Shown here piece after piece: positions 5,521-64,000 of a stretch of DNA of 64,000 nt; position 1 is the stretch's first letter; every line of letters starts with the position of its first letter. Both the position numbers and the translations under genes were made by a program. The DNA is taken from positions 448,001 through 512,000 of the forward strand of contig CP010425.1 of NCBI GenBank assembly GCA_000830295.1. Reading direction: 5' to 3'. This DNA comes from an archaeon GW2011_AR15. GTDB taxonomy: Archaea; Nanobdellota; Nanobdellia; Woesearchaeales; GW2011-AR15. Under the pieces are notes generated by a model. The model worked only from the letters and a program-made list of their open reading frames with translations, was not told the DNA's origin and made no database searches.

Positions 5521-5552
5521 AATATAAATATGATTTCACCTTCTGTTTGCCC

Positions 5553-6227
5553 ATGAAGACCTTTATTGTTATTGCCGCATTCAATGAGGAAAAGAAGATA
5601 GGAAAAGTCCTTGACAGTCTTCTGGCGGAAAAATGCGGAAATATTGTTGTTGTGGATGACGGCTCTGCAGACAACACAGCAAAAATTGCTGAATCAAAAA
5701 AAGTCCATGTGCTGAAGCATTCCCTTAACCGGGGGCAGGGCGCTGCGCTTAAGACGGGCATTGATTATGCCCTGCAGGAAGGCGCTGATATTATCGTGAC
5801 ATATGACGCAGACGGCCAGTTTCTCCCTGAAGATATAGAAAAGGTTGTTGCGCCTGTAAAAAGAAAAGAAGCTGATATTGTCCTTGGCTCAAGATTCCTC
5901 GGAAAGGCAGTCAACATGCCGTTTTCAAAAAAGATTGTGCTGAAGCTCGGTGTCCTTGTCGTTTTACTGCTTTACAGGATCAAGATAACAGACTCGCAGT
6001 CAGGGTTCAGGGCACTGTCAAGAAAGGCAGCGGAAAAGATAAAGCTCACAACAGACAGGATGGAGCACGCCTCTGAATTTTTCTGGGAGATAATGAGGAA
6101 CAGACTTAAATACAAAGAGGTCCCCATAACTGTAATATATGATGACTATTCCATTTCCAAAGGCCAGAAATGGACAAAGAGCATAGAATTGGGCCTGAAG
6201 ATGCTGTTCAGGAGGTTTTTGATGTAA
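5553..6227 (+). CDS. GT2 glycosyltransferase, DPM1-like (polyprenol-phosphate glycosyltransferase)
   Basis: IAAFNEE, VVDDGSADNT, NRGQGAALKTG, YDADGQ, GSRF, TDSQSGFRA. Confidence 0.9.
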   Translation: MKTFIVIAAFNEEKKIGKVLDSLLAEKCGNIVVVDDGSADNTAKIAESKKVHVLKHSLNRGQGAALKTGIDYALQEGADIIVTYDADGQFLPEDIEKVVAPVKRKEADIVLGSRFLGKAVNMPFSKKIVLKLGVLVVLLLYRIKITDSQSGFRALSRKAAEKIKLTTDRMEHASEFFWEIMRNRLKYKEVPITVIYDDYSISKGQKWTKSIELGLKMLFRRFLM

Positions 6228-34495: not shown

Positions 34496-34610
34496 GGCGG
34501 ACAGCGAACCAGTTTTCCCACACATAGTGCAGTACCGGCTGGAACGTCGGCAGTTTTTACTTCTGTGTTCGAAATGGGAACAGGTAGCTCCCTGCCACTA
34601 TGGCCGTCCA
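34496..34610 (-). rRNA. rrf: 5S rRNA (solitary, with its own TATA box)
   Basis: UGGACGGCCAUAG...CCUGUUCCCAUUUCGAACACAGAAGUAAA...GUACUG...GGGAAAAC...GCUGUCCGCC; helix I ends pair; TTTATAAA at 34632-34639. Confidence 0.95.
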
Positions 34611-34669
34611 TAGTGGTGGAAACAAGGACCCTTTATAAAGTTAACTTTTTATAGTCACTCACGAAAAAA

Positions 34670-37990: not shown

Positions 37991-39598
37991 ATGTTTTTTA
38001 AAACCATATTAAAGAAAATATCTAAACACAAGATTGTCCTGTTTTTGATATTATTGAATTTAACCTTAAATCTCATAGGTATTAATTTTGGTCTTCCTGA
38101 TACGTGGCATCCCGATGAACTTACACATTCTGTTACAAGAATGCTGTCAGAAAAAACACTTAATCCTGGAAGATTCACGTATCCTTCTTTTTACCATTAT
38201 GTGCTCATAGCTGCGAATATACCCTATTCGGCATTTTTACTGTTATCAGGAAAAGCGGCGATGTTAGCGACAGATTCAGTACTAAGGCAACAGACAATAG
38301 CAATAATCTTTCTGACGTCTAGGATTGTTACTGCCTTTTTTGGAAGCATACTGGTTTTTCTTATATACATTATAGCAAAAAAAGTCTCGAATGAGAGAGC
38401 GGCCATTATCTCTGCTGCCTTTGCATCTCTAAACATGGCCATAATTACATACTCACATTTTGCAACATCAGACATGCCAGTAACTGTAATGTCTATGCTC
38501 TCTATCTATATGATACTCAGACTTTATGAAAAGCCAATACGTATGAATTATATCCTAACCGGGCTGGCCATAGGGCTTGCTACAGGAACAAAATATTATG
38601 CGGTAGTGTTGGTTCTTTTATTAATAGGAGCGCATTTACTTGCAACAAAAAAAGTTTCAATAAATAAAAATTTAATAATCTCAGGTATGTTGTGCGCTGT
38701 TGGATTTCTAATTACTACCCCTTTTGCAATTCTTGACTTTAACACCTTTTTTAGAGATACCACACTTCTTTTTACGACCGTGCAAACAGTCCAAAATCTT
38801 TACGACCCCGTAACAGCGTTATCCTATTTTTTCCATCTAGATAATGGTCTCGGAACACCCCTTTTTATCCTTAGTTTAATAGGAACAGCATATTGTGTTT
38901 ATTTGGCAAGAAAAAATAATAAATTACTGCTTCTTTTGTCATGGGCAATAGGATATTTTTTGCTTGTATCTTATATCATACACTTCTCATTTTTAAGATA
39001 CATACTTCCTGTTGTGCCAATAATTATTATCTTTGCAGGTGTTTTTTTCAATTATTTGCTTTCATTTAAGAGACACAGAATAATCACTTACTCTTTTCTT
39101 TTTGCAGTTTTGTTATTCAATTTTTCATATGCAATAAAAACAGATATGCTCTTTGTAAAAGATTCTCGTTATTCTTCCACGGAATGGATAAAAGAGAATA
39201 TACCTGATAATTCTAATATATTGATATTTGCGCAAAACCTTAGGTATTTTCCTGACATATCCTCTGAAAAGAACGTAAGTTATCTTAATGTTACAGATTT
39301 TTCAAGTGTTGAAAGTCTAAGAGAAGCAATCAAAAAAATATCACCAGATTATATAATCGAGTCAAGTCTTTACTATAATAGGTACCTCTACTATACCAAC
39401 ATGTATCCAAAAAGATCCCCTCTGCAAGATCTTTTCGGTTATGTGAGCCACGAGCCAGTCGCAACTGATTTTTATAGAGAACTTATAAATGAAAAATTAG
39501 GATATTCATTAATTAAAAAATTCCCGGAAGAAAAAGAGGACGTGCCTGATCCTGAGTTTATAAATCCAACAATTTTAATATTCAAATTAAATAACTAA
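37991..39598 (+). CDS. Multi-pass GT-C glycosyltransferase (PMT/ArnT-like)
   Basis: WHPDE luminal motif, YPSFY, GLATGTKY, RYILPVVP; many TM helices. Confidence 0.8.
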   Translation: MFFKTILKKISKHKIVLFLILLNLTLNLIGINFGLPDTWHPDELTHSVTRMLSEKTLNPGRFTYPSFYHYVLIAANIPYSAFLLLSGKAAMLATDSVLRQQTIAIIFLTSRIVTAFFGSILVFLIYIIAKKVSNERAAIISAAFASLNMAIITYSHFATSDMPVTVMSMLSIYMILRLYEKPIRMNYILTGLAIGLATGTKYYAVVLVLLLIGAHLLATKKVSINKNLIISGMLCAVGFLITTPFAILDFNTFFRDTTLLFTTVQTVQNLYDPVTALSYFFHLDNGLGTPLFILSLIGTAYCVYLARKNNKLLLLLSWAIGYFLLVSYIIHFSFLRYILPVVPIIIIFAGVFFNYLLSFKRHRIITYSFLFAVLLFNFSYAIKTDMLFVKDSRYSSTEWIKENIPDNSNILIFAQNLRYFPDISSEKNVSYLNVTDFSSVESLREAIKKISPDYIIESSLYYNRYLYYTNMYPKRSPLQDLFGYVSHEPVATDFYRELINEKLGYSLIKKFPEEKEDVPDPEFINPTILIFKLNN

Positions 39599-41846: not shown

Positions 41847-41904
41847 ATTAACAGGTTAACCATATGTATAAATAAAGTTTATAAAGATTTCTTAATTATC
41901 TTGG

Positions 41905-42738: not shown

Positions 42739-42746
42739 ATCTTTTA

Positions 42747-43541: not shown

Positions 43542-43563
43542 TCTATGCTTTCAGTTCCAACAA

Positions 43564-44661
43564 TTATTTTTCATAAAATTTGATAATAGTTCTGCAAACA
43601 TATTCTATCTGTTCTTTTGCGAGGCTGCAAAACACAGGCAGAGAAAGGCCACAAGTATAGGCCATCTCGGAAATATGATAGTTCTCATTCTTGCTCTTTA
43701 AATCAGAGAAGCATGGCTGCTTATGCAAAGGATAAAAGAATCTTCTTGTCTCTATCTTGTTTTTTTCAAGATAATCAACAAGTTCTTCTACCTTTTCTGC
43801 AAGAATGTTTGCACGGAAAGGTACGATATTTGTGTAGCTATTTTCTCCAAGAAACTTTATCTGTTTTACATTTTTCAGAAGATTTTTGTACATAGCATAA
43901 TTATTCAGTTTTATTTTCTCAATTTCTCCAAATTTTTTTATTTGAGCAACACCAACGGCGCACTGCAAATCTGTCATTCTAAAGTTCATTCCAATCCCCG
44001 GATGGATAAATGTGCTGCTATGTGGTCTTCCCTGATTCCTAAGAAGCTTTATTCTTTCATATATAATCTCATTATTTGTTAGTATCACCGCACCTTCTCC
44101 TGTTGTTATTGTCTTATCTGCAAAAAAAGAAATCATGCCCACATCCCCAATAGTGCCGGTATGTGTTCCTTTGTAAAATACGCCGAAGCCTTGCGCAGCA
44201 TCCTCGATAACCAGCAGATTGTGTTTTTTTGCAATACGCATTATGGGATCCATATCACATGACTGGCCATAGATATGGACAGGCATTATCGCTTTGGTTT
44301 TTTTGGTTATTTTTTCTTCAATTTTTTCTGGATCCATGTTTAAATCTGTCTTTGCAACATCCACAAAAACAGGAGTTGCACCAGTAAATGCAATTGAGGA
44401 GCCAGAGGCATTAAATGTAAAATCAGACACAATAACTTCATCGCCTTTCTTGATCCCACAGCCAAGCAAACACAGGAACAATGCAAGAGTGCCATTAGAC
44501 GCCAGGAGGGCATATCTGGCTTTTGTAAATTCCTGCAGCCTGTCAAGAAATTCCTTGGCAAAAAGCCCTTCAGACAGCCATTTATTCCTGATAACAATCT
44601 CTAGATTTTGCAATTCCTCCTTGCCAACATAAGGCTCTAATTGTGGTACTTTGTATTCCAT
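43564..44661 (-). CDS. DegT/DnrJ PLP aminotransferase, GDP-perosamine synthase-like
   Basis: SNGTLAL, MPVHIYGQ, IEDAAQG, SFFADKTITTGEG, NFRMTDLQCAVG, ETRRFFYPLHKQP. Confidence 0.85.
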   Translation of the reverse strand: MEYKVPQLEPYVGKEELQNLEIVIRNKWLSEGLFAKEFLDRLQEFTKARYALLASNGTLALFLCLLGCGIKKGDEVIVSDFTFNASGSSIAFTGATPVFVDVAKTDLNMDPEKIEEKITKKTKAIMPVHIYGQSCDMDPIMRIAKKHNLLVIEDAAQGFGVFYKGTHTGTIGDVGMISFFADKTITTGEGAVILTNNEIIYERIKLLRNQGRPHSSTFIHPGIGMNFRMTDLQCAVGVAQIKKFGEIEKIKLNNYAMYKNLLKNVKQIKFLGENSYTNIVPFRANILAEKVEELVDYLEKNKIETRRFFYPLHKQPCFSDLKSKNENYHISEMAYTCGLSLPVFCSLAKEQIEYVCRTIIKFYEK

Positions 44662-44690
44662 GTTTCAACACCTAAAACCATCACTATCGT

Positions 44691-46127
44691 CTAAAATAAT
44701 TTAAATTTTACAAATGCTTTCCAGGCCATCTTGAGCAACAAAAATAAATGCTTGAATTTACTGATTATATTTTTTCCATAGGCCTTTGGTTCACCATATA
44801 TTCTAGGAACATAATGTACAGGTATTTCAACAACTTTTAAATTATGCCCTATTGCTCCGAATATCAGCTCAAAATCACCAAAAGGGTCAAAATCACCAAA
44901 ATAACTTATATTTTTTCTTATCTTAAGATAATTTTTTTTGGAAATGGCTTTGAAACCACACAATGTGTCTGTGAACCTTTGGCCTAAAATAACCGTAAAT
45001 AGGTTTCCAAAGAACCGATTTATTATAAAATTGCCAAAAGGCATAGCATCTTTTTCCATTGCATAGACTAGGCGCGTGCCATTTACATATTCTCCAAGAC
45101 CAAGTGCATATGCATCATAAAAGAGCTTTATCTCTTCCGGCGGGGAAGTAAGGTCTGCTTCAAGCCAGCACACAAAATCACCTTTTGCATTATCGAATCC
45201 CATCCTGAAAGCATCACCCTGTCCAATCCCTCTTTGTTTCAGGAATTTTATATCTTTATCAGGGTATTTCTTAATCATTTCCTTGATTTTTTTGACAGTA
45301 TTGTCTTTTGAATGCCCTTCAACAAACAATATTTCTGTGTTTTTTCCCATAGAAGGTATTTTTTTTACAAGCTCCTCAATATTGCCCTCCTCATCTCTAC
45401 AAGTTATTACAACCGAGGTGGTTATGTCCTTGACATTGTCCGGGGGGCACATTAGCCGGGCTATCACGACTTGTTCAAGGCAAAACCGCCTTATTACCGG
45501 CAATTTTGATATTAATGTGTTTGATGCTTCAGAGACAATGGGAAAATATTTCGGAAACAGGAGGAAAAAATCCCTCTTAATCACTTGGTATCCGGCAATA
45601 TAAAGGAAATTATCAATATCATCTATAGAAGGCCAGTTAAATATCATTTCAGGCTTCTTCATTCCTAAAGATTCAGATATTTTTAGTATAGGGTTCCACA
45701 GTTGATTGTAATAGTTTATTATGAGCCTTGTGTCTGAACTACACATCTTTGAGATATTCTGAAGCAGTCTCTGTATATTCTTTACAGACCCGATAGTACC
45801 GGAGATTATAATATAATCAAATTTAAAATCAACAGAAAAAGATTCAATATCTTCACAATAGAACTTTATTTTAGGATATTTTTTCTTTGCTATTTTTATC
45901 ATTCCATCACTTATATCAACTCCAACACCATAAGAAGAGTAAAGATTTCCAATTAAATTACCAGCACCACATCCAAGCTCCAGTATACTGCTGTTTCTCG
46001 GGATGTTATTTCTATAATATCTTAGTATTTGACTATGATAATACATATTTTTTTTATACCAGGTGTCCCATCTTTTAGAAACAGAATTATTGATCTCCCT
46101 TATTTTATTCAGCTTATCACCCACCAT
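44691..46127 (-). CDS. Methyltransferase-GT2 glycosyltransferase fusion
   Basis: N-terminal LELGCGAG; C-terminal CRDEEGNI, VEGHSKDNT, LEADL, TDTLCGFK, FDPFGDFELIFGA. Confidence 0.85.
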   Translation of the reverse strand: MVGDKLNKIREINNSVSKRWDTWYKKNMYYHSQILRYYRNNIPRNSSILELGCGAGNLIGNLYSSYGVGVDISDGMIKIAKKKYPKIKFYCEDIESFSVDFKFDYIIISGTIGSVKNIQRLLQNISKMCSSDTRLIINYYNQLWNPILKISESLGMKKPEMIFNWPSIDDIDNFLYIAGYQVIKRDFFLLFPKYFPIVSEASNTLISKLPVIRRFCLEQVVIARLMCPPDNVKDITTSVVITCRDEEGNIEELVKKIPSMGKNTEILFVEGHSKDNTVKKIKEMIKKYPDKDIKFLKQRGIGQGDAFRMGFDNAKGDFVCWLEADLTSPPEEIKLFYDAYALGLGEYVNGTRLVYAMEKDAMPFGNFIINRFFGNLFTVILGQRFTDTLCGFKAISKKNYLKIRKNISYFGDFDPFGDFELIFGAIGHNLKVVEIPVHYVPRIYGEPKAYGKNIISKFKHLFLLLKMAWKAFVKFKLF

Positions 46128-46147
46128 AATAGCATTCCAACCCCGCC

Positions 46148-47203
46148 CTAATCATAATATTCGCTCGCGGAGCTTTCCTTCCAGTCAGATTCCACCATAA
46201 TTCTCACAAGCTCTTTAAACTTTGTTTTTGGTTGCCATTTTAGTTTTTTCTTGGCTTTTGTTGAATCCCCAAGCAGCGTATCAACCTCTGCAGGTCTGAA
46301 GTATCCTTTGTCTATTCTAATTATAGCTTTGCCGGTTTTTTTATCGATTCCAACTTCATCCAGGCCTTTACCTTCCCATTTAATCTGAATTCCAAGAACA
46401 TTACATGTTTCTTCAATAAACTCTCTTACAGAATGGTTTTCTCCTGTTGCAATGACATAATCTTCAGGTCTCTCCTGTTGCAGCATAAGCCACATTGCCT
46501 CAACATAATCCTTAGCATACCCCCAATCTCTCTCTGCATTAATATTTCCAAGATAAACACAATCCTGCAATCCTTTTTTCACTCTGCACAGCCCCAATGT
46601 TATTTTTCTTGTTACAAAAGTTTCACCCCTTCTTGGGGATTCATGATTAAACAGGATTCCATTGCAGGCAAATAAATTATAGGCCTCCCTGTAATTTACA
46701 GTTATCCAGTAAGAAAAAACTTTTGCGCAGGCATACGGGCTTCTCGGATGAAACGGGGTTGTTTCTTTCTGTGGTGTCTCCCATACTTTACCAAATATCT
46801 CTGAGCTTGATGCCTGATAGAACCTTGATTTGAACTGATTTTCCCTTAATGCTTCTAGTATTCTCAGCGTGCCCAACGCAATAGTGTCAGCTGTATATTC
46901 AGGAATCTCAAAACTGACTTTTACGTGACTTTGGGCTCCAAGATTGTAAATTTCATTTGGTCTGATAGTCCTTAATATGTGGTTTATGTTACTAGCATCT
47001 GTAAGGTCACCGTATATAGTATCAAATCTTGGATGATTGTAGATATGGTTTATCCTTTTTGTATTAAATGAGCTTGATTTTCTTTGTATCCCATATACAT
47101 TATAGCCTTTTTCCAATAGAAACTCAGCAAGATAGGAGCCGTCCTGCCCAGTAATTCCGGTTATCAATGCCCTTTTGGCGCTTTTTGTTGTCTCGTTAGT
47201 CAT
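46148..47203 (-). CDS. gmd: GDP-mannose 4,6-dehydratase
   Basis: [54 protein letters not shown]. Confidence 0.97.
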
Positions 47204-48555: not shown

Positions 48556-50106
48556 ATGGCAGAATACTCAAAAAAAATAGTAAAAGGCACAATAACAGTG
48601 CTTATTTTCACGTTTCTTTCTGCTCTTTTGGGATATGTTCTGAAATTCGTGTTTGCAAGATATCTGCAGGTTGAAGAGATTGGTCTTTTTTATTCCGTTC
48701 TGGGATTTATTCTTTTCTTTGCATTCATCAGAGATTTGGGTCTGTCTGATTCCCTTACGTATTTTATTCCAAGATTTAAAGTAGATAACAAAAAGAAAAA
48801 TATCAAATCAGCTATTTTATTTACACTCTATATCCAGATGGCAATCGGAATTCTGTTTGCTGTTGTTTTTGTTGCATTGTCAAATACTCTTGTAAAATAT
48901 TATTTTAAGGATGAACGGGCACTTTTTCTCATACTCGGGCTTGCATTTTACTTTGTTATCGAAGGGATTTATGAAGTATTATTCCAATCTTTCCAGGGAT
49001 TTCAGGATATGTTTCTTTTTCAGGGGCTGGAGTTTTCTTTCCAGGTCATATCACTTGCCTTTTTTTTGGTATTTATATTTGCCAAAATACCAATAACATA
49101 TTTTGCCATAGTTTATCTTATTAGCATGATAATTTCCACAACAATTTTCTTCGTTTTGTTTGTTAAAAAGTTGTTTCCGGATTTCTTTTATATAAAGACA
49201 AAAATATCAAAAAAACTGAAAAAAGAAATGCTTGAGTATTCATTTCCAACAATGATGGGTAGCCTTGCGGGTACAATCTTTAGCCAGCAATCAGTATTCT
49301 TCCTCACTTTTTTTGTAGGACTTGAAGCAGTGGGCTATTATGTCATGGCGCACGCTCTTGCAAAAATCTCAATCTTCTTTTTCAAGGCTGTAAATTTTGT
49401 TTTTTCCCCCATAATGTCAGAGATGTGGAAAAAGAAAGACATCAAAAGCCTGAATTATTATTTTAATGAAATGATAACATACACATATGTTGTTGGGGTT
49501 CCGATGGTCCTCGCTCTTGTTGTTTTTCCCCAAGAGATTCTTAGGATATTATATTCAGACTCCTTTTTGCCAGCATCACAAGCCCTAATGCTATTAGCAT
49601 TTTATTACCCTTTTTTTAGTTTTAACAGCCTCTTCAAAAGAGCATTTTTAAGCGCCGGCATGCCAAAACTTGCAAGAAATGCAACGTATGCCACACTAAT
49701 AGTAAACCTGGTTTTTAATATTGTTCTTATCCCCACATATGGCCTTCTTGGTGCAGTAATAGCCGATATAGTATCTATCGCTATTACAACAATTTATGTA
49801 TTATATCTAAACCACAAACACCTATCAATCCTCATAGATAAAAATAAACTTGTAAGGGTTATCGTAGCTTCAACACTTTTCATCATATCTGCGGCCGTCC
49901 TTAAGCACATAATTAACATGCCAATAATCCTTGAATTGATTTTAGTATTGATTATTGCAGGCGGCACTTATATAGGGGCCATATTCGCTCTTGGCATAAT
50001 ATCGTTTAAGAAAATAATTTTTGTTTTGGATTTAATTACCAATAAGAAGTTTAGGCATTATTTTTTGAAAGAAGAGAAAGTGCCAATTAAAGATACCCCC
50101 AAATAG
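48556..50106 (+). CDS. Oligosaccharide flippase (Wzx/MOP family)
   Basis: About 14 hydrophobic segments, DLGL motif, LVFNIVLIPTYGLLGAVIA. Confidence 0.88.
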   Translation: MAEYSKKIVKGTITVLIFTFLSALLGYVLKFVFARYLQVEEIGLFYSVLGFILFFAFIRDLGLSDSLTYFIPRFKVDNKKKNIKSAILFTLYIQMAIGILFAVVFVALSNTLVKYYFKDERALFLILGLAFYFVIEGIYEVLFQSFQGFQDMFLFQGLEFSFQVISLAFFLVFIFAKIPITYFAIVYLISMIISTTIFFVLFVKKLFPDFFYIKTKISKKLKKEMLEYSFPTMMGSLAGTIFSQQSVFFLTFFVGLEAVGYYVMAHALAKISIFFFKAVNFVFSPIMSEMWKKKDIKSLNYYFNEMITYTYVVGVPMVLALVVFPQEILRILYSDSFLPASQALMLLAFYYPFFSFNSLFKRAFLSAGMPKLARNATYATLIVNLVFNIVLIPTYGLLGAVIADIVSIAITTIYVLYLNHKHLSILIDKNKLVRVIVASTLFIISAAVLKHIINMPIILELILVLIIAGGTYIGAIFALGIISFKKIIFVLDLITNKKFRHYFLKEEKVPIKDTPK

Positions 50107-52159: not shown

Positions 52160-53347
52160 ATGTCCAGGATATTTATTATTGTCAGAGATTTTAGGGAGAA
52201 TAGCGGATCATACTCCGGCATGGTTGAAAAATTTTCTAAACATGCCTCAAAGAAAGGCTACAAAATAGTTATTTTGTGTGCTAGAACATCAGAAGGACTT
52301 GCATCATCCGAAAATCTAGAGTATGCAGAAGTCATCCGCTTCCCTCTAAACTCGTTCAGGATTGCAGGGATAGGAATGAATAATGATTACCTCGTGCTGG
52401 CAAAACATGTCAAAGAATACTTTTCAAAAACACATACTGAGAAAGAAGATATCATACTGGCAAATGGAAGAGCAGCGCTAGGTCTAAAAGGACGTAAATA
52501 CATTCTTAGAGTTGGTCAACCGGCGTTATATTTTCTTGAGAGTTTGGAGATTGCAAAAGAAAACACATCTCTTTTAACGAGGGCAGCAAGACAGATACAT
52601 TTTAGGTTTCAGTTATACCTGGAAAGGACGGCTTTTAGAAATGCAGAAGCCTACATCTTTTCTTCCATGGAAAGTATGAATCTAAACATTAAATACTACG
52701 ACGGGAAGAGAAAACCATATTTTATACCTATATCAGGAACCAATTATGAAAATTTGAAATCAACCAATAAGGGAAGGAAAAAAGAGAAGACAATCCTCTT
52801 TATTTCAGCTGGAAGCGGAGAGAAAATCCGAAAAGGTACAATTCATCTAGAACAGGCATTGCCAGGCATTTTTTCAGAATATAATGGTGTTTCCTTAACA
52901 CATGTTGGAACACCCTTTGAATGGAATCTTCCTGGCTGGTGCAAAAAAAGAATTAATTCAGTAGGAAGAGTTCCTTGGTCGGAAATCAATAATTATTATA
53001 GAACTTCAGACATAGTGGTAATCCCCTCCCTCTATGAGATTATACCCAATGTTCTTCTGGAAGCAATGTCTGCAGGGGGAAAAATTCTTGTTGGGAACAT
53101 GTGCGGAGTAAGCGAATATGTCAGTCATAAAGAGTCCGGATATATTTTTCAACGCGGGAATGTAGAATCACTAAAAACAGGACTTAGATATTTCCTGGAT
53201 AATCCAGATAAAACAAAAAAATTCGGTTCAATAGCACGGAAAAAAGCCGCAAGGATATCGTATGAGAATTATTCTAAAAACCTCCTAAACTTTCTTGTGT
53301 CTGTAAACAACGGCCAAAAACCGAATATAAACCTTCTCGAGGGATAA
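52160..53347 (+). CDS. GT4 glycosyltransferase
   Basis: IRKG, PSLYEIIPNVLLEAMSAG (EX7E). Confidence 0.88.
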   Translation: MSRIFIIVRDFRENSGSYSGMVEKFSKHASKKGYKIVILCARTSEGLASSENLEYAEVIRFPLNSFRIAGIGMNNDYLVLAKHVKEYFSKTHTEKEDIILANGRAALGLKGRKYILRVGQPALYFLESLEIAKENTSLLTRAARQIHFRFQLYLERTAFRNAEAYIFSSMESMNLNIKYYDGKRKPYFIPISGTNYENLKSTNKGRKKEKTILFISAGSGEKIRKGTIHLEQALPGIFSEYNGVSLTHVGTPFEWNLPGWCKKRINSVGRVPWSEINNYYRTSDIVVIPSLYEIIPNVLLEAMSAGGKILVGNMCGVSEYVSHKESGYIFQRGNVESLKTGLRYFLDNPDKTKKFGSIARKKAARISYENYSKNLLNFLVSVNNGQKPNINLLEG

Positions 53348-55947: not shown

Positions 55948-56418
55948 ATGAACTTGTTAAATTCAGAAATAATAGAAAAAACGCTGCAGGAAGCAAGAAA
56001 GTCAGAGAGGGGAAGAGCCATATTTTGTTTTCACAAAAAAACAGACGGACTTCAGAGAATGGTAAATGCGGTTCTGAAAGAGACATATTTAAGGCCGCAT
56101 AAGCATGAAAATCCAGATAAACTCGAGATTTTCTCTATAGTGAAAGGAAAAGTGGCAATTTTAACCTTTGACGATTCCGGAAGAATAAACGAAAAAAGGA
56201 TACTTGATGAAAACGACGAGATAAAAATAGCAGAAATCCCACCAAAAACATGGCATAATTTCGTTGTACTAAGCAAAGAAGCAGTGCTATATGAGATTAT
56301 TGATGGTAAATACAACCCAAAGACGCATAAAAAAGAAGCTAAATGGGCTCCTGAAGAAAACACACCAGCAGCAAAGATTTATCTAACTAGATTAAGGAAA
56401 GAGACCAACAATGGTTAA
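55948..56418 (+). CDS. WbuC-family cupin
   Basis: ARKSERGR, QRMVNA, YLRPHKH, EIPPKTWH, GKY...AKWAPEE. Confidence 0.82.
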   Translation: MNLLNSEIIEKTLQEARKSERGRAIFCFHKKTDGLQRMVNAVLKETYLRPHKHENPDKLEIFSIVKGKVAILTFDDSGRINEKRILDENDEIKIAEIPPKTWHNFVVLSKEAVLYEIIDGKYNPKTHKKEAKWAPEENTPAAKIYLTRLRKETNNG

Positions 56419-57589
56419 AAAGATGTATATATTGGCTCAGGGATTTGCTGAAAACGGCGGAAGCTTTTTTGGTTTTGTTGAGGAAATTGCCAAGGCATTT
56501 TCAGGAAAGAGGTATGCAGTCAAAATCCTGTGCAGAAAGATGCAAAAAGCCGAAAAAAATTATGAGAGATTTTCATACGCAGAGGTCTACAGATTTCAGT
56601 TTTCCAAATTTCCATTCTTCAATGCAATTGCAGAAGAGCTGCTCTTCGCTTTCAAAGTAAACAGCTTCCTTAAGAAAGACAATTTTCAAGAAGGAGAGAT
56701 TATAATAGCAAATGGGCTTACGCCACTTGGACTGAAGAAAAGATATATTCTCAGAGCACCTGACCAACCTGTACTTACATTTCTCAAAAATATGGCCTTG
56801 GCGTCAAAATATACTCCATTTATTTCCAGAATAGCAAGAGCACTTCATTTTCACATTTTTTACTTCATGGATAAAAGAGTAATAAGAAATGCCACTGCAG
56901 TGATATATTCATCAGAAGCAAACAGACAAGAAAACATAAAACAATATGGCGTTGTTGGGAAACCGTACTTCATCCCAAACAAAGGCATTGACATATCTTA
57001 TTTTAAACATATTCCAAAAAAGAAAAAATCAAGAAAATTACTGTTTGTTGCTCACCGAGATGAGAAAATAAGGAAAGGAGCAATATATCTTGAGAGAATA
57101 TTGCCAAAACTATTTACAAAGTATCCCGATGCGGAGCTCACACATGTTGGAGAAAAATCTCTTTGGGATGTGCCTGATTGGTGCAGAAAAAGAATAAACT
57201 CAACCGGTAAAGTACCAAAAGATAAAATGAGAGAATACTACATGGCATCAGACATACTTGTGTTTTGTGCTCTCAACGAGGGAATTCCGGCAACGATAAT
57301 GGAAGCAATGGCGTCAAAACTGCCTATTGTAACCAGTGATATAGAAGGCGTTGGAGAATATATCGAGCATATGAAAGGAGGGTATATTTACAAAAGAGGA
57401 GATGCAAAAGGATTGTTGTCCGGAATTTCATATATGTTGGATAATCCTGAAAAAAGCATGAAAATGGCAGAGAATTCTTTTGAAAAAATAAAATCTCTTG
57501 ATAGTAAGAAATATTATCCTCTTCTTTTGAAATTTGCTGAAGATATATATGCAGGCAAACCAGAGAGTAAAGATATACTTAACTCATAA
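56411..57589 (+). CDS. GT4 glycosyltransferase (paralog of 52160-53347)
   Basis: IRKG, NEGIPATIMEAMAS. Confidence 0.88.
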   Translation: MVKKMYILAQGFAENGGSFFGFVEEIAKAFSGKRYAVKILCRKMQKAEKNYERFSYAEVYRFQFSKFPFFNAIAEELLFAFKVNSFLKKDNFQEGEIIIANGLTPLGLKKRYILRAPDQPVLTFLKNMALASKYTPFISRIARALHFHIFYFMDKRVIRNATAVIYSSEANRQENIKQYGVVGKPYFIPNKGIDISYFKHIPKKKKSRKLLFVAHRDEKIRKGAIYLERILPKLFTKYPDAELTHVGEKSLWDVPDWCRKRINSTGKVPKDKMREYYMASDILVFCALNEGIPATIMEAMASKLPIVTSDIEGVGEYIEHMKGGYIYKRGDAKGLLSGISYMLDNPEKSMKMAENSFEKIKSLDSKKYYPLLLKFAEDIYAGKPESKDILNS

Positions 57590-57626: not shown

Positions 57627-58628
57627 TTATTGATTCAGCTCACCTTTTATTATTCTTGTAGATGACAGTCCAGGCAGAAGCTTTACAATGTGGATGCTCC
57701 CGCCATGTTTCTTTATGGTAGACGCTTCCACGCAATCCTTGCCGTATTCTGACCCATTTACATGGACATCGGGTCTTATTTTTTCCAAGAGCCTGACAGG
57801 CGTGGTTTCGTTGAACACAGTTACATAATCTACTTCCATGTAGTTAGCCATCATTTTTTGCCGGGACAATTCATTGTTTAATGGCCTGTCATTGCCCTTG
57901 TTCTGCCTGACAGAGGAATCAGAATTGACAGCTATTATAAGCACATCTCCCTGTTTTTTTGCCTCTGAGACTATATAATCATGACCCTCATGGAGAATAT
58001 CAAAGGTGCCATTCAGTGTAACAATTCTTTTTCCTGTGCTTTTTAATTTGATTGAAATCTCTACTAATTTTTTGCTGTCTACGATTTTGTCATAATCAGA
58101 GAATTTAAGGAAGTCAGCGGCTCTTGACAGATTCCCGGCGATGTAGCTTGGATTTTTTTCTCTGGCTACTGCTAATTGCGATGGACCGAGGCCAGTCAGC
58201 AAAAAAACAGATTTCATTCCAGAATTAATGCCCAGCACAATATCTGAGGCTTTGTCGCCTATGACCCATGAAGAAACCAAATCCAGTTGATATTTGTCTC
58301 TGGCATCACGGATCATTTTTGGCTTTGGCTTCCTGCATGCGCAATTGTCTTCTGGAGCATGGGGGCAGAAATATACCCTTTCTATATTGATATTGTGTGC
58401 AGACAGCACATGCAATAATTTATTGTTATAGGATTCCATATCTTCTTTTGAAAAAATCCCCCTGGCTATGCCGCTTTGGTTTGTGACAATGAAAAGTTTA
58501 TATGTTTTTAACTTTTCTAATCCTTCTATGACACCTGGAAGAAGGGCAAAATCCTCAACTCGGTGAGAAAAACCAATGTCTCTGGTTAATGTTCCATCCC
58601 TGTCAAGAAACACAGCGCTATTGCTCAT
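57627..58628 (-). CDS. gmhB: Fusion of heptose-1,7-bisphosphate phosphatase (GmhB) and heptose-1-phosphate adenylyltransferase (RfaE domain II/HldC)
   Basis: FLDRDGTL, TNQSGI, CPH...CACRKP, IGDKASD; then NGTFDILHEGH, NSDSSVRQNKG, GLSST. Confidence 0.92.
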   Translation of the reverse strand: MSNSAVFLDRDGTLTRDIGFSHRVEDFALLPGVIEGLEKLKTYKLFIVTNQSGIARGIFSKEDMESYNNKLLHVLSAHNINIERVYFCPHAPEDNCACRKPKPKMIRDARDKYQLDLVSSWVIGDKASDIVLGINSGMKSVFLLTGLGPSQLAVAREKNPSYIAGNLSRAADFLKFSDYDKIVDSKKLVEISIKLKSTGKRIVTLNGTFDILHEGHDYIVSEAKKQGDVLIIAVNSDSSVRQNKGNDRPLNNELSRQKMMANYMEVDYVTVFNETTPVRLLEKIRPDVHVNGSEYGKDCVEASTIKKHGGSIHIVKLLPGLSSTRIIKGELNQ

Positions 58629-59583
58629 TTTTCAGGCTTTGACGAAGCTCATCAAGCATCACAGGAGCAGTGCCTATTTTAGTGACTTTCACGCCAGCAC
58701 AATGGTTGGAAATTATTGCAGCATCATAAAGCGCTGCTCCAGAAGCGATAGATAATGCAAGTGCAGCAACAGCGGTGTCGCCAGCACCAGACACATCAAA
58801 AACTTCTTTTGCCAGGGTTGGTATCTGAATTATGCTTTTTCCCTTTTCAAAAATTGCCATTCCTTTTGCTCCTAGTGTGATTATTACATTGCTTTGGAAT
58901 AGCTCTATCAACTTATTTCCTGCCCTTTGCAGATCCTCAGGATTATCAAGATGGATGCCTGTCATCTCCTCTGCTTCCTTCCTGTTGGTCTTGATAAGGT
59001 AGGCGCCTTTGAAATAATTCTTGTGTCTGGGCTTCGGATCCGCAATTAAAGGAATATTTTTCTTGTTACAATAACTGACTAATTCTGATGCAAGTTGCTG
59101 GGTCAATACCCCTTTAGCATAATCCGAGACTATCACTGCATCTGGATTATTAATCCCGACGGCATTTAATACCAACTTCTTGCTTATCCCATGCTCAATC
59201 GGCTCTCTTGATTCATAATCTATCCTTACTATCTGCTGTTTCTGGCCAATTACCCTGATTTTCTGGGTCGTGGGCCTGTTAGATGAAAAAACTACGCCCC
59301 CGACATCAATGTGATTTTCGTCAGCACATTTCATAAATATATCTTTAGCAGCATCCTGCCCTAAAACACCCAATAAAAATGCCTTGCCGGAGAGCGTCAC
59401 GATATTGTTTGCAGTATTGGCAGCGCCCCCTAGCACATATTTCTCGTCACTGACATCGATAATGGGAACTGGAGCCTCCTGGGAAATCCTGTCTGCTCCT
59501 CCAAAAATATATTTATCAAGCATCAGGTCGCCTACTACCAGAATCCTTTTTTTAGAGAATTCCTTTAGATATTTTTCATACAT
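58618..59583 (-). CDS. Heptose-7-phosphate kinase (RfaE domain I/HldA)
   Basis: VGDLMLDKY, RISQEAPVP, GGAANTA, SDYAKG, VFDVSGAGDT. Confidence 0.93.
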   Translation of the reverse strand: MYEKYLKEFSKKRILVVGDLMLDKYIFGGADRISQEAPVPIIDVSDEKYVLGGAANTANNIVTLSGKAFLLGVLGQDAAKDIFMKCADENHIDVGGVVFSSNRPTTQKIRVIGQKQQIVRIDYESREPIEHGISKKLVLNAVGINNPDAVIVSDYAKGVLTQQLASELVSYCNKKNIPLIADPKPRHKNYFKGAYLIKTNRKEAEEMTGIHLDNPEDLQRAGNKLIELFQSNVIITLGAKGMAIFEKGKSIIQIPTLAKEVFDVSGAGDTAVAALALSIASGAALYDAAIISNHCAGVKVTKIGTAPVMLDELRQSLKNEQ

Positions 59584-60469
59584 GTATCATCACTGAATAT
59601 TCTTTTATAGCATCGGCAAGCTTATGCACAGCCTTGAATCCCAGGTATTTCTCAGCTCTATGTGTATCAGCCTGTGTGTGCATCTGATATGTTTTAAGGT
59701 CATATGGAACATCTATGTATTCCGGCTCAATATCTGTTCCCAGTGCCTCTTGTATCATGCTGTATAGTTCCTTGAATGATGTTGCTATGCCTGTGCCCAC
59801 ATTATAGATCCCGGCCCGGGAATCCAGTGCCAAAAGATTTGCCCTTACAACATCTTTGACATAAATATGGTCCCTCTTCTGTTCGCCCCACTTGAAAAGC
59901 TTTGGCTTTTTGCCTTCTTTAATCTGCCTAATCAGGTGGTAAATCATGGAGGCCGGCCTTCCTTTGTGGAGCTCATTTGGGCCGAAAACATTAAAATACC
60001 TCAAACCAACAATGTGCATATCATCAAAATGGTATGTAGCCATCTCGTCCATAATCAGTTTTGACTGGGCGTAAGCGCTTTGTATATCCTTTTCCTGATC
60101 TTCTTTTTGCGGAGTCGGGCTGTTCCCGTATATGCTGGCACTTGAGGCGTAGATAAGTTTTGCATTGCTACCTTTTGCCAATTTAAGCATATTCTTGAAT
60201 CCGTTGATATTTTTCCTAATGGTTTCTTCATCATTTCCATATCTTGGGTCAGTAATTGCTGCCTGGTGGAATATTGCATCAAATTTTTCTTTTATTGACA
60301 ACTGGCCTGACAGGTCTTCATTAATGAATTTTCCTTTCAACCCTTTCAGATTATCTTCATGGCCGGAAAGCAAATTATCAATTACAACTACCGAATGCCC
60401 CAGCTTCTCAATCTCGAGTGCAATATTTGATCCTATGAAACCTGCCCCGCCTGTGACAAGACATTTCAT
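59576..60469 (-). CDS. rfaD: ADP-L-glycero-D-manno-heptose 6-epimerase
   Basis: TGGAGFIGSN, HQAAITD, YASSASIYG, LRYFNVFGPNELHKGRPASM, GEQKRDHIYVKD, YQMHTQAD. Confidence 0.85.
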   Translation of the reverse strand: MKCLVTGGAGFIGSNIALEIEKLGHSVVVIDNLLSGHEDNLKGLKGKFINEDLSGQLSIKEKFDAIFHQAAITDPRYGNDEETIRKNINGFKNMLKLAKGSNAKLIYASSASIYGNSPTPQKEDQEKDIQSAYAQSKLIMDEMATYHFDDMHIVGLRYFNVFGPNELHKGRPASMIYHLIRQIKEGKKPKLFKWGEQKRDHIYVKDVVRANLLALDSRAGIYNVGTGIATSFKELYSMIQEALGTDIEPEYIDVPYDLKTYQMHTQADTHRAEKYLGFKAVHKLADAIKEYSVMIHV

Positions 60470-61029
60470 TTTAAAGCTTCCCTCTCAACAAGTTCACAGA
60501 TAATGTGGTAGGCTGTCATATGGCATTCCTGAATTCTTGCAGTCTCTTTTGCCGGGCAATTTATATTATAATCACTCATTGCCTTAAGTTTCCCGCCGTC
60601 CCTTCCAGTCAGAGAGATATTTACAGTCCCTATTTCCTTTCCCCTGGCAAAGGCATTGAGTACATTTTGAGAATTTCCAGAGGTGGATATGCCAAGCAAT
60701 ATATCTGAAGGAGATGCAAGCGCCTCAACCTGGCGCGAGAAAACCCGATTATAATCATAGTCGTTTGATACAGCAGTCAATATTGAACTGTCTGTGGTCA
60801 AAGCAATTGCAGGCAGGCCCTTTCTTTCAAGCTTGTATCTTCCGACAAGCTCCGCAGCAATATGCTGTGAATCAGCAGCCGAGCCCCCGTTTCCGAATAT
60901 CAGAATTTTATTGCCTCTCATTAATGCCTCACTGATTACATTGCTTATCTTCTCAAGCATGTCTGCCTGGCTGAAAAGCTCATTCTTGGCAGCGATAGAT
61001 TCCTGAATAATATCTTTAATTGATTGCAT
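60466..61029 (-). CDS. gmhA: Phosphoheptose isomerase
   Basis: GNGGSAADSQHIAAELVGRY, NDYDY, STSGNS, TARIQECH; start MQSIK at 61029. Confidence 0.96.
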   Translation of the reverse strand: MQSIKDIIQESIAAKNELFSQADMLEKISNVISEALMRGNKILIFGNGGSAADSQHIAAELVGRYKLERKGLPAIALTTDSSILTAVSNDYDYNRVFSRQVEALASPSDILLGISTSGNSQNVLNAFARGKEIGTVNISLTGRDGGKLKAMSDYNINCPAKETARIQECHMTAYHIICELVEREALK

Positions 61030-61141
61030 GGGCAGAAAGAGGCGGGTTTTATTTATATAACTTTTTGTATTTTTCGAACCGACCCCGTCGTTTAAATAAC
61101 CCACCCCAAAATATTTAAAACCATTAAATATTATAAGCGGA

Positions 61142-62923
61142 ATGAAACAAAAGATTTTATTCGGTGCAGCATATTCAATTATTGAGCCGCTCGGTCTTTT
61201 GCATCTGGGTGGATTGGCTAGGGATTTAGGGTTTGAAACGGATTATTGCTTGGTCAAAAACCAGGAGTATTCAGAGTTCCATGATAAAGTAAAAGCTGAA
61301 AAGCCAGATTTCGTAGGATTTAATGTATATACGGGCAATCACCTCAGCCTTTACAAATATCTTGGACTCCTAAAAAAAGAATTCCCTAAAATCAAGACCA
61401 TACTTGGCGGGCCCCATTCCAGCTATTTCCCTTATGAAGCTGTCAAGCATGCAGATTATGTGGTGATGAGCGAAGGCTTCACAGGACTTAAGCAGATACT
61501 CCTGGGAGAGGCTGCCAAGGGAGTGATTCCGCCGGCAAGGGAGAGTTTTACATTTCCAATTCCCGACAGAAAAAAATTCTATTCCTTGTATCCAAAGCAT
61601 GGCAGTAGCCCAATAAAAAGCATAATTACGATGACGGGCTGCCCTTTCAGGTGCACCTATTGCTACAATAGCTCAAATATCGAAGATGTAACTTCCGGCC
61701 TTTCTAAAGAAGTACTGCTCAAATTTGACAAGTCCAGGCTGCCAGGAAGGCTGTTCGCCTGGAATATAAGGACTGTGGATGCTGTGATTCAGGAGGCTAT
61801 AGAACTTGTTAAGAATTATCCGACAAAAATGATATATTTCCAGGATGATGTTTTTGGTATGAAACTCAAATGGCTTGAGGAATTTGCAAAGAGATGGCCA
61901 AAAGAAGTAGGCATCAAATGGCATGCGCAGATGAGGTGGGAAATGACTGTAGGAGAGAGCGGGTGCCAGAGGCTGGATTTGTGCAAATCTGCAGGATGCA
62001 GCGGACTCACCCTGGCAATAGAAGCTGCTGATCCTGTGATGAGGGCAGAAGTGCTGGACAGAACAATGCCGCAGGAAATGATCTTTGAAGGAATGAAAAA
62101 CTGCACAGACAGGGGACTTATGATAAGGACTGAGCAGATAACCGGCCTGCCGTATGGTGCAACAAGCGCACCCACAAAAATAAACCTTGGCGCAGACCTG
62201 CAGATTCTTGAATTGAATGTCAGGTTGAGGGAAAATACAGGCGGACCCCATATTGCATGGGCATCCACTTTTGTGCCTTATGCAAGGACAAGGCTCGGCA
62301 TATATTCAACAAACTACGGATTTTACGGCAATCCCGGAGACGAAAACTGGGACATCAAGGATACTTTTTTCGAGAAAAGTGTGTTAAAATTTCTGAAAAA
62401 CTATGTTGGCCCGGAGCTCAAAGAAAAGAAAAATTTGCAGGATTTGTGGCTTTCGGGGCAAGAGCTCGAACAATACAGAAACCAAAATGCGCAACTTAGG
62501 CATCATTTCAATGTATTTGCATACCTTGACAAAGGCCACGAGTTTGCTGAAAAATACATTAAGCGTGGTGAATACACCTTTGAAGCTCTTGGAGAGATGG
62601 TGAGGGACTGGCAAAAGCACAAAATCAGCAAGGAAGATGAGAAGAAGTTTATATCTAAAATCTCTCAATATATAAAAACCGAATCACAGAAAAAATCAGT
62701 TGTTTCGCTGGCCCCATATTTGATGTCTGTGCCTTATCCAGAAGAACTGGCAAGACGCTTCCTAAATTATGCTGAAAAAAAGGGACATGAGATGAGTGTA
62801 TTGAGCGATGCTGTGAGGCATCATCTATATGATTATGTTGTGTATCAGGTTGAAGCACCATCAGATACGTCATCATCCTATTCAATCAAATTGCCTGGCT
62901 CTGCAATTTCTTATGAATGCTGA
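61142..62923 (+). CDS. Cobalamin-binding radical SAM protein
   Basis: EPLGLLHL...GGPHSSY B12-binding-like domain; GCPFRCTYCYN CxxxCxxC; YFQDDVF. Confidence 0.88.
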   Translation: MKQKILFGAAYSIIEPLGLLHLGGLARDLGFETDYCLVKNQEYSEFHDKVKAEKPDFVGFNVYTGNHLSLYKYLGLLKKEFPKIKTILGGPHSSYFPYEAVKHADYVVMSEGFTGLKQILLGEAAKGVIPPARESFTFPIPDRKKFYSLYPKHGSSPIKSIITMTGCPFRCTYCYNSSNIEDVTSGLSKEVLLKFDKSRLPGRLFAWNIRTVDAVIQEAIELVKNYPTKMIYFQDDVFGMKLKWLEEFAKRWPKEVGIKWHAQMRWEMTVGESGCQRLDLCKSAGCSGLTLAIEAADPVMRAEVLDRTMPQEMIFEGMKNCTDRGLMIRTEQITGLPYGATSAPTKINLGADLQILELNVRLRENTGGPHIAWASTFVPYARTRLGIYSTNYGFYGNPGDENWDIKDTFFEKSVLKFLKNYVGPELKEKKNLQDLWLSGQELEQYRNQNAQLRHHFNVFAYLDKGHEFAEKYIKRGEYTFEALGEMVRDWQKHKISKEDEKKFISKISQYIKTESQKKSVVSLAPYLMSVPYPEELARRFLNYAEKKGHEMSVLSDAVRHHLYDYVVYQVEAPSDTSSSYSIKLPGSAISYEC

Positions 62924-63002
62924 CTTTGCTTTGTCTGTTTCAGATTACTAATGCAGACCATAAAATACGCAAATTTATAATAATCTGCAGAAATCATTCC
63001 TT

Positions 63003-64000
63003 ATGATGAAGAAAATCCTGATATTAAATCTGGTGCCGAACACAATAGGTGATTCTATCTTGATGACCCCTATGTTCACTACAATAAAGAAAAACTATCC
63101 AGATTCTTTCCTTGCCGCTACAGCAGACAGGCTCACCAGGGATTTGTGGCTTAATAATAAGGAGATTGATAAGACAATACTTGTAAAAGAACTGGAGACT
63201 ATTGGCAATCACAATGCAGGCAAATTAAAAAAAGCCTATGCATACTTTAGAATGTTTTTCCGATTGATACGACAAATAAGGGCAGAGAGATTTGATGCCT
63301 GCTTCATAGCTTACCCCAATTTTTTTCTAATGCCCCTAATCCCCTATCTGGCGGGAATCAAAACAAAGGTAGGATATACCTACAAGGGATCTTATCTGGC
63401 TTTCCTTCTGACAAAAAAAACACCAAGCATGTTGCTTTTCGATGATTGCTACGATAGGCATATTGTTTACTCCTTTATGGACCTACTTAAGGCTGCAGGG
63501 CTATCTTATTCAGAATCTGATATAGTGCCCCGGATTTTGGTCTCGGAAAAGGAATTGTCTGCAGCCAGAAAAAAACTGAAGAAATTTAAAAGACTCATAT
63601 CCGTGCACGCCTTATCAAAGATTGTCTCAAAAAACTGGCCAAAAGAAAAATTCAGGGAACTACTGCCGATTCTCGCAAAAAAATATAATGCGACAATCCT
63701 GCTGTTCGGCTCAAAAGGAGAATTTGGATACAACGAGGAGATAAAAGGCAGTTCAGAGCAGATTGTCAATTTATGCGGACAATGCAGCATCAGGGAAACT
63801 GCTGCCCTGATAAAGCTTAGTGATTTATTTATCGGAAATGATTCCGGGCTTGGTCATATTGCCTCAAGTGTCGGGACAAATACAATCTCGTTGTTCGGCT
63901 CCACGGATCCAGTGCAGGCAAAGCCCATTGGTCCCGGAAAAGTGATTGTAATATTCAAAAATAACAGGAAAAACTTATTCCATTATTACAAGACTGGAAG
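63003..64000 (+). CDS. GT9 heptosyltransferase (WaaF/WaaC-like), truncated by the window edge
   Basis: Not in the ORF track; read manually: MMKKILILNLVPNTIGDSILMTP...KNWPKEKF...NLCGQCSIRETAALI...FIGNDSGLGHIASSVG...LFGSTDP. Confidence 0.9.
   Translation, partial: MMKKILILNLVPNTIGDSILMTPMFTTIKKNYPDSFLAATADRLTRDLWLNNKEIDKTILVKELETIGNHNAGKLKKAYAYFRMFFRLIRQIRAERFDACFIAYPNFFLMPLIPYLAGIKTKVGYTYKGSYLAFLLTKKTPSMLLFDDCYDRHIVYSFMDLLKAAGLSYSESDIVPRILVSEKELSAARKKLKKFKRLISVHALSKIVSKNWPKEKFRELLPILAKKYNATILLFGSKGEFGYNEEIKGSSEQIVNLCGQCSIRETAALIKLSDLFIGNDSGLGHIASSVGTNTISLFGSTDPVQAKPIGPGKVIVIFKNNRKNLFHYYKTG

Follow-up and report, generated by a model that had tools for sequence, protein, structure and literature searches.

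What would an archaeon do with a complete set of genes for ADP-L-glycero-D-manno-heptose, a sugar nucleotide best known from the lipopolysaccharide (LPS) of Gram-negative bacteria? The question is raised by one end of a 64,000-nt stretch of the genome of the archaeon GW2011_AR15 (contig CP010425.1, positions 448,001 to 512,000), hereafter called the window, in which four heptose genes and a gene of glycosyltransferase family 9 (GT9) lie within positions 57,627 to 64,000. An earlier note on this DNA had read the genes as an ADP-heptose pathway with its own heptosyltransferase. From the analysis presented here, we consider it reasonably probable that an archaeon of the DPANN lineages (Diapherotrites, Parvarchaeota, Aenigmarchaeota, Nanoarchaeota and Nanohaloarchaeota) makes ADP-heptose with these enzymes and that the GT9 protein transfers the heptose to a lipid-linked surface glycan.

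The four genes gmhA, hldD, hldA and gmhB-hldC are co-directional on the minus strand (57627-61032) and overlap by 11, 8 and 4 nt in the list of open reading frames (ORFs). In a sequence search of the Protein Data Bank (PDB), the best solved relative for each of the five activities was the bacterial enzyme of the same name. GmhA scores 218.2 bits against TIGR00441, above the cutoff of 209.45, and matches 1tk9 (E 1.2e-51). Its mechanical ORF (60466..61104) encodes 212 aa from a GTG, while the ATG at 61032 gives a protein of 188 aa that fits the lengths of solved GmhA proteins and of the orthologues in loci L002 and L042 (187 and 186 aa). HldD scores 276.7 bits against TIGR02197 (cutoff 274.6), matches 3sxp and 1eq2 (E 8.7e-58 and 2.1e-39), and contains GGAGFIGS and YAQSK in its translation. 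The sole PDB match of HldA at E<=1e-15 is HldA 4e84 (E 1.6e-56, residues 8-313), and its second-best family, ribokinase, reaches just 93 bits. The remaining two activities are fused: residues 2-175 form a GmhB domain (HAD-IIIA heptose 1,7-bisphosphate 7-phosphatase) that matches E. coli GmhB 3l8e (E 7.6e-29), and residues 194-328 form an HldC domain (heptose 1-phosphate adenylyltransferase) that matches the HldC-type 5x9q (E 1.6e-23). The motifs DRDGT, TNQSG, the CPHx6CxCRKP loop, GDKASD, HEGH and LLPGLSST are intact in the fusion, whose nucleotidyltransferase is thus joined to the phosphatase, not to the kinase. Family scores, PDB matches and overlaps uphold the overlapping operon of gmhA, rfaD (hldD), a heptose kinase and a gmhB-adenylyltransferase that had been proposed earlier, and at the level of predicted proteins they confirm that counterparts of all five ADP-heptose pathway enzymes are encoded.

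Table 1. Features of the window and of related loci (positions are those of the window unless a locus is named; scores in bits, family cutoffs in brackets)
Feature	Position	Strand	Remarks
GmhB-HldC fusion	57627..58628	-	333 aa; NF006506 and TIGR02199 domains
HldA, PfkB-type heptose 7-phosphate 1-kinase	58618..59583	-	321 aa; TIGR02198; 4e84
HldD (RfaD), ADP-glycero-manno-heptose 6-epimerase	59576..60469	-	297 aa; TIGR02197; 3sxp, 1eq2
GmhA, sedoheptulose 7-phosphate isomerase, SIS-domain	60466..61032	-	188 aa from ATG; TIGR00441; 1tk9
AT-rich spacer, 109 nt	61033..61141	.	between the divergent gmhA and radical-SAM genes
B12-binding radical-SAM protein	61142..62923	+	593 aa; PF02310 62.3, PF04055 41.4; CPFRCTYC
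GT9, putative ADP-heptose-dependent heptosyltransferase	63003..64000	+	PF01075 132.8 (22)
Wzx/MurJ-type polysaccharide flippase	48556..50106	+	PF01943 82.8; PF13440, PF03023
PMT_2 (ArnT/PMT-like) GT-C glycosyltransferase	37991..39598	+	PF13231 51.9; 8 hydrophobic segments
PpgS-like polyprenyl-phosphate GT2	5547..6227		within window, outside the glycan island; 180.6
PolD large subunit	within window		NF003103 1388.3 (1269)
Orc1/Cdc6	within window		NF001625 520 (501)
FEN-1	within window		TIGR03674 409.5 (351.95)
EndA, tRNA-splicing endonuclease	within window		TIGR00324 115.2 (59.6)
ArnC/PgfS-like GT2 (polyprenyl-phosphate sugar synthase type)	L001 3607-4560; L002 4710-5630; L042 10982-11914

The earlier note had also reported a GT9 gene that starts at 63003 and was missed by the ORF track, and we found it there. 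The track would miss it because the ORF (63003..>63998) is open at its 3' side at the end of the window; 332 aa lie inside the window, and the full-length protein, P0121, has 358 aa, of which 26 residues lie beyond. A search with this protein gave 91 proteins at E<=1e-3 among 2935 candidates, and an exhaustive search of 1.84 billion representatives gave 27,619 at E<=1e-3 and 55 at E<=1e-30. Twelve relatives (P0122-P0133) stand out, being 42-62% identical to the query across at least 96% of its length, and the next full-length matches have 29-32% identity. Many other relatives (P0349-P0382 and others) are 600-1080 aa long and carry the GT9 domain at about residues 330-680, hence fused to an N-terminal domain. 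In a tree of 43 rows made by a quick method, the window protein and its twelve relatives form a clade with a Shimodaira-Hasegawa-like approximate likelihood ratio (SH-aLRT) support of 100, which is sister to seven bacterial HepII-like rows (support 86). Two members of the clade are named, both Woesearchaeota. Its basal member, P0133, is the only one above the HepII cutoff (169.2 bits).

The GT9 sequence retains the conserved residues of this family. G16, D17, N279, D280 and H285 are invariant in the 43 aligned sequences and W212 nearly so, and they correspond in the alignment to the WaaF motifs GD, K-x-W-P and NDSG..H (K-N-W-P and N279-D280-S-G..H285 in the window protein). From the WaaC literature, we take D17 of the GD motif to be the catalytic Asp and the C-domain motifs to be donor binding. 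Two features set the clade apart: all 13 members have a two-residue insert ahead of the GD motif, and 12 of the 13, including the window protein, lack the C-terminal CxPC..C..C motif that is present in 25 of the other 30 rows. An AlphaFold model built on the 43-sequence alignment has a predicted local distance difference test (pLDDT) value of 95.5 and a predicted template modelling score (pTM) of 0.92, and its top nine fold matches in the PDB are GT9 structures of the GT-B fold. The best match is WaaF 1psw (E 7.1e-22, template modelling score (TM) 0.76, 22% identity), and TM is 0.78-0.82 for the Veillonella parvula GT9 3tov and 0.67-0.70 for WaaC.

The fold search also lists TibC (4rap and 4rb4, E 2.8e-08 and 1.2e-07), which bears on the possibility that the protein heptosylates proteins directly in the cytoplasm, as bacterial TibC/AAH enzymes do. 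TibC uses ADP-heptose and is presented as the founding member of a large autotransporter heptosyltransferase family (PMC4358343, in the part available). However, its TM to the model is 0.50-0.57, far weaker than that of WaaF, 3tov and WaaC (0.67-0.82), TibC gave no sequence match to the GT9 at E<=0.01, and the C-terminal cysteine cluster is gone from the window protein and nearly all of its clade. We therefore consider direct O-heptosylation very unlikely. By its sequence and modelled fold, the window GT9 is a GT-B enzyme of HepII-like descent that is neither an LPS-heptosyltransferase equivalog nor TibC-like.

As had been claimed, the host is archaeal: PolD, Orc1/Cdc6, FEN-1 and EndA are encoded on the same contig as the heptose genes, and the family scan found the PolD small subunit, PAN, Trm5b and aIF-2beta as further archaeal genes of the window. 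Among the matches listed, the closest non-self relatives of Orc1 are a protein at 85% identity from a Nanoarchaeota metagenome-assembled genome (MAG) and many Woesearchaeota proteins at 60-68%. Because the closest named relatives are from Nanoarchaeota and Woesearchaeota MAGs, the host, as judged from its encoded proteins, is a DPANN archaeon of the Woesearchaeota/Nanoarchaeota type.

A bacterial LPS segment could still have been misjoined to an archaeal contig during assembly or binning, and the earlier note had itself named such a chimeric join as the danger to its reading. Some of the composition data are in line with this. In GC content, the window goes from 41-48% in its first 38 kb to 32-38% at 38-58 kb and 41-42% at 58-64 kb, so that the heptose block is slightly unlike the core, and in tetranucleotide z-scores, correlated against the 1-34.6 kb core, the block has an r of 0.87, under the 0.92-0.97 of five core pieces. 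In addition, the window HldA and HldC group with the contig L003 (SH-aLRT 95-96), their nearest partner besides DPANN, which is a real bacterial contig since it carries DNA polymerase III alpha and a response regulator. On the other hand, the signature of the block is nearer to the core than that of any of the 71 foreign pieces compared (other DPANN loci at most 0.83; bacterial pieces at most 0.72, median 0.55), and the relative synonymous codon usage (RSCU) of core and heptose genes correlates at 0.82. The window contains no N and no long repeats (searched at 36-64 kb), and no tRNA gene was found in it, at the borders of the block or elsewhere. HldA groups with the Woesearchaeota locus L002 at SH-aLRT 95, the same operon is present in four other DPANN loci, and those members of the GT9 clade that carry an organism name are Woesearchaeota. 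In two other assemblies, relatives found for the fusion, the GT9 and Orc1 agree in the length of their longest contig, a per-cluster value: 139,452 bp for P0011, P0122 and P0241, and 295,093 bp for P0018, P0125 and P0261, the latter named Woesearchaeota; the protein clusters of the window itself were seen on 17-22 contigs. With operon order, tetranucleotide signature, GT9 clade and the lack of N all pointing the other way, a chimeric join is extremely unlikely. The lower signature correlation and the grouping with L003 are compatible with an old inter-domain transfer in either direction.

Where, then, would the heptose go? The heptose genes end a surface-glycan island of about 30 kb (~34.6-64 kb), which contains, besides the flippase and the PMT_2 enzyme of Table 1, a sugar nucleotidyltransferase, an AglM-like dehydrogenase, an Fcl-like reductase, methyltransferases, a GT2-methyltransferase fusion, two DegT aminotransferases, a WbuC cupin and a GNAT protein. 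Because the genes close this island, we infer a lipid-linked surface glycan as the acceptor of the GT9. The window also encodes, at 2584-4284 on the minus strand, a protein of 566 aa whose start resembles a signal peptide and which has a Lamin-tail domain and a C-terminal hydrophobic anchor at residue 542. It has 15 N-x-S/T sequons (2.7 per 100 aa), and its sequence marks it as a candidate glycoprotein of the cell surface that might serve as a glycan acceptor. With the island, the flippase and this sequon-rich protein in the window, the S-layer glycan or archaeal glycolipid suggested earlier is a plausible acceptor, while a role in host attachment or virus evasion is speculation.

In the mechanism that we propose, GmhA would isomerise sedoheptulose 7-phosphate, the PfkB kinase HldA would yield the beta-1,7-bisphosphate, and the fused GmhB-HldC would remove the 7-phosphate and then adenylylate, performing consecutive steps on one polypeptide. 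ADP-L,D-heptose would be the cytoplasmic product. The divergent GT9, whose HepII/WaaF-like lineage is Woesearchaeota-only among named sequences, would then move the heptose, at the cytoplasmic face, to a lipid-linked (dolichyl-phosphate-type) oligosaccharide assembled by the GT4 and GT2 enzymes of the island, and the Wzx-like protein would flip the product, which would end up on a surface glycoprotein or lipoglycan.

Several observations weigh against this mechanism. Three of the five activities score a little below their NCBIfam equivalog cutoffs: HldA reaches 343.8 bits against TIGR02198, 1.2 below the cutoff of 345, the GmhB domain 155 bits against NF006506 (cutoff 178) and 140.5 against TIGR00213 (149.6), and the HldC domain 146.6 bits against TIGR02199, HldE domain II (181.5). 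Full-length P0121 is under all five heptosyltransferase equivalog cutoffs (HepI, HepII, HepIII, RfaQ and RfaF); its best score is 117.6 against HepII TIGR02195 (cutoff 134.6), and the other four are 93.4 against 170.2, 87.6 against 467, 74.6 against 185.3 and 66.5 against 569. The radical-SAM gene, which is unrelated to the pathway, separates the GT9 from the operon. A GT9 gene is near the operon in none of the eight other DPANN loci, many of which are on short contigs, and in three of the eight an ArnC/PgfS-like GT2 (NF007986, 183-195 bits) directly follows it. The window has no evidence of an acceptor, and no AglB was found in it. Finally, the linkage of the fusion, GT9 and Orc1 relatives in two other assemblies is indirect, as the shared length is that of the longest contig of a cluster and not of a contig that was read.

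The related loci come from a scan of genome contigs in which the best 80 loci were kept (top identity 54%). The order gmhA-hldD-hldA-fusion is repeated in the Woesearchaeota loci L002 and L042, and L001 and L011 have hldD-hldA followed by the fusion in L001 and by HldC alone in L011; in both, a Cupin_2 gene takes the place of gmhA. Such a small Cupin_2 gene, mannose-6-phosphate isomerase-like, occupies the place of the SIS-type gmhA ahead of hldD/hldA/HldC at L001 201-566, L011 7517-7903, L022 8669-9019 and L063 8684-9037, and its product may stand in for the isomerase GmhA without being homologous to it. The bacterial MAG locus L003 (5608-10987), the nearest non-DPANN relative of the window HldA and HldC, has a PMT_2 GT-C enzyme and a GT9 divergent from gmhA-hldA-fusion and is without hldD. 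A different heptose cluster is found in a Methanosarcinales MAG (L038, 7584-13714), with an HldE-like kinase/adenylyltransferase of 498 aa and a protein of 874 aa in which an ARMT1-type damage-control phosphatase is fused to an HldC domain. In this cluster a GT9 gene directly follows hldD, and the protein has a HepII score of 135.3, just over the cutoff of 134.6. The adjacency supports a functional pairing of GT9 and hldD in archaea.

The ArnC-like GT2 genes behind the operon in L001, L002 and L042 hint at another fate of the sugar, a dolichyl-phosphate (Dol-P)-heptose carrier. In such a route, an ArnC/DPM1-type GT2 would load heptose onto polyprenyl phosphate, a GT-C enzyme of the PMT_2 type would deliver it outside, and the GT9 would do other work. 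The window does contain a PpgS-like GT2 and a PMT_2 GT-C enzyme, and L003 has PMT_2 and GT9 genes beside its operon. However, the window has no close orthologue of the ArnC-like GT2, just domain-level matches at 28-38% identity, the GT2 scores are far under the equivalog cutoffs (529 and 370), and the glycosyltransferase nearest to the operon is the GT9. Moreover, we know of no description of a polyprenyl-phosphate-heptose carrier, which also counts against this route. We consider it unlikely, and transfer by the GT9 to a lipid-linked glycan is the route that we prefer.

The radical-SAM gene between gmhA and the GT9 gene raises a further question, namely whether the heptose nucleotide serves a product away from the surface, for example a small molecule that the B12 radical-SAM enzyme would modify, or whether the GT9 uses another donor. 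A precedent exists, as ADP-heptose is a precursor of septacidin in Streptomyces (PMC11573728, PMC11461863, in the parts available), and the radical-SAM protein is without a characterised relative: it has no PDB match at E<=0.01 and no PHROG, and its neighbours in the Atlas are unnamed B12 radical-SAM clusters only. Among the clusters shown there, the one with the most features in common with it (210 of 256) is mostly viral (Uroviricota). Nevertheless, no relative of the gene is found in any of the best 80 related loci, so that its association with the pathway is not conserved; no further natural-product genes were noticed, and the heptose block lies next to a classical glycan island that has a flippase and several glycosyltransferases. 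We regard this explanation as distinctly unlikely. In the AT-rich spacer from which gmhA and the radical-SAM gene diverge, TTTATATA-like and ATATTTAAAA-like boxes lie 20-35 nt ahead of each start codon; they are TATA-like when read by eye, and the spacer probably holds the promoters of both genes.

In addition to the proteins discussed so far, the window contains several features of its own interest. The island between 38001 and 58000 is low in GC, with a GC content at third codon positions (GC3) of 0.335 compared with 0.50 for core genes and a tetranucleotide r of 0.90 to the core. Within it, a module at 41376-47203 encodes Gmd (TIGR01472 563.6 bits, cutoff 415), a DegT aminotransferase and a formyltransferase, which would lead to an N-formylated amino-dideoxy sugar; FolD and 5-formyl-tetrahydrofolate cyclo-ligase adjoin the module and would provide the formyl donor. 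Two GT4 enzymes (52160-53347 and 56411-57589) are paralogous, and their genes are 70% identical over a stretch of 77 nt (repeat D1). A single 5S rRNA gene (34496-34611, minus strand, RF00001 67.1 bits), the sole Rfam match in the window, lies where the housekeeping region gives way to the glycan island. At 6597-7064 on the plus strand, this archaeal contig encodes an equivalog of NrdR (189.9 bits, cutoff 124.65), which is typically a bacterial regulator.

In a homologue search with the GmhB-HldC fusion, 8000 candidates were scored, 6269 of them with E<=1e-3, and all 120 relatives that were listed are proteins of about 330 aa with both PF01467 and the HAD domain PF13242. The named carriers among the matches listed belong to Woesearchaeota, Nanoarchaeota, Deltaproteobacteria and several groups of the Candidate Phyla Radiation (CPR). 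Both domains were matched in 13 of the best 80 loci (three DPANN, four Peregrinibacteria, two Moranbacteria, one Saccharibacteria, two Verrucomicrobiota and L003). On a poorly resolved HldC-domain tree made by a quick method (81 rows, 148 columns), the fusion may have arisen once or more often: the tree needs five changes, and its starred branches force only one. In two commentaries on the work of Tang et al. (Science 2024), as far as their text was available, heptose nucleotidyltransferases (HENases) are described as mono-domain, kinase-fused or isomerase/kinase-fused (PMC11573728, PMC11461863), and the phosphatase-fused enzyme of the window is not among the three architectures given there. 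The same texts present (F/L)XXGRSTT (STTR5) as a hallmark of CTP/UTP promiscuity, a rule that is not absolute (PMC11573728, PMC11461863). The window fusion reads LLPGLSST, with L where STTR5 has Arg, and an Arg is found there in only one of 39 aligned fusions. Because this Arg is replaced, ATP is the nucleotide expected for the HldC domain.

How much of this is new? Archaeal heptose-nucleotide enzymes are already known, and what the window adds are modest variants, the GmhB-HldC fusion and the Woesearchaeota-type GT9 clade. In MAGs of Woesearchaeota and Nanoarchaeota, these proteins already bear such names in public annotation. Our literature search, which covered few subscription journals, found no account of how DPANN archaea would make heptose or of what an archaeal GT9 uses as acceptor. 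Thermoplasma and Cuniculiplasma also have a heptose in their N-glycans, which was considered as a direct precedent and rejected, as it is D-glycero-D-galacto-heptose, not manno-heptose (PMC12448462, in the part available). The earlier note also mentions that ADP-heptose is the ALPK1 agonist; this holds for the molecule but is of no evident relevance to a DPANN archaeon from the environment. We put forward, as a tentative and still doubtful extension, that a DPANN-specific GT9 lineage places L,D-heptose, the sugar that characterises the inner core of bacterial LPS, on a glycan or lipoglycan at the surface of an ultra-small, episymbiotic archaeon, and that GmhB-HldC is a fourth HENase architecture that spread by inter-domain transfer with CPR bacteria, which are likewise without LPS. 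If so, heptosylated surfaces would be a trait common to both groups of ultra-small symbionts and might mediate host contact.

The finding overturns nothing, as archaeal heptose-nucleotide enzymes were published before. If the enzymes work as predicted, a DPANN envelope would be decorated with a sugar that is usually seen as a hallmark of Gram-negative LPS. The GmhB-HldC fusion, found in DPANN, CPR and a few other bacteria, is a natural two-step enzyme that could be probed for substrate channelling. Why archaea make heptose nucleotides was called an unresolved question by the authors of a cross-kingdom survey (PMC11573728, in the part available), and four pathway genes plus one transferase make a compact set for asking it.

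The closest known systems include archaeal ones. In the available text of these papers, archaeal heptose-nucleotide enzymes were reported and assayed by Tang et al. (PMC11573728, PMC11461863), and ADP-heptose clusters lie in glycan regions of Methanococcus maripaludis KA1 and JJ (PMC12667266), so that the earlier note was right that heptose nucleotide genes had been reported in archaea (PMC11573728, PMC12667266). The window resembles them in having an archaeal heptose-nucleotide pathway inside a glycan cluster (PMC11573728, PMC12667266), and differs in that the host there is a methanogen and here a DPANN lineage (PMC12667266). Compared with the ADP-heptose route of E. coli, the window has, by homology, the same five activities and enzyme families, a PfkB-type kinase leading to the beta-anomer and the 6-epimerase. 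However, E. coli fuses the kinase with the adenylyltransferase, whereas the window has a stand-alone kinase and a phosphatase-adenylyltransferase fusion; its host is archaeal, and no Kdo (3-deoxy-D-manno-oct-2-ulosonic acid) or lipid A family was matched among the window ORFs put through family scans.

The GT9 shares the GT-B fold with WaaF 1psw, WaaC and V. parvula 3tov and keeps the catalytic Asp in GD, K-x-W-P and NDSG..H. In contrast to WaaF, it carries the clade insert before GD, has lost CxPC..C..C as have 12 of the 13 clade members, and stays at 22% identity to 1psw and under the HepII cutoff, and an archaeon is not expected to have Hep-Kdo2-lipid A, the usual acceptor of WaaF. In bacteria, S-layer and capsule glycans receive heptose through the GDP-D-glycero-alpha-D-manno-heptose pathway, which consists of GmhA, HddA, GmhB and HddC. 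GmhA and GmhB are common to both pathways, and in both the heptose would go to a non-LPS surface glycan, as is proposed here. The two part at the kinase, which in the window is PfkB (HldA-type) and not GHMP, at the nucleotidyltransferase, which is cytidylyltransferase-like (HldC), and at the ADP-heptose 6-epimerase, which the window has.

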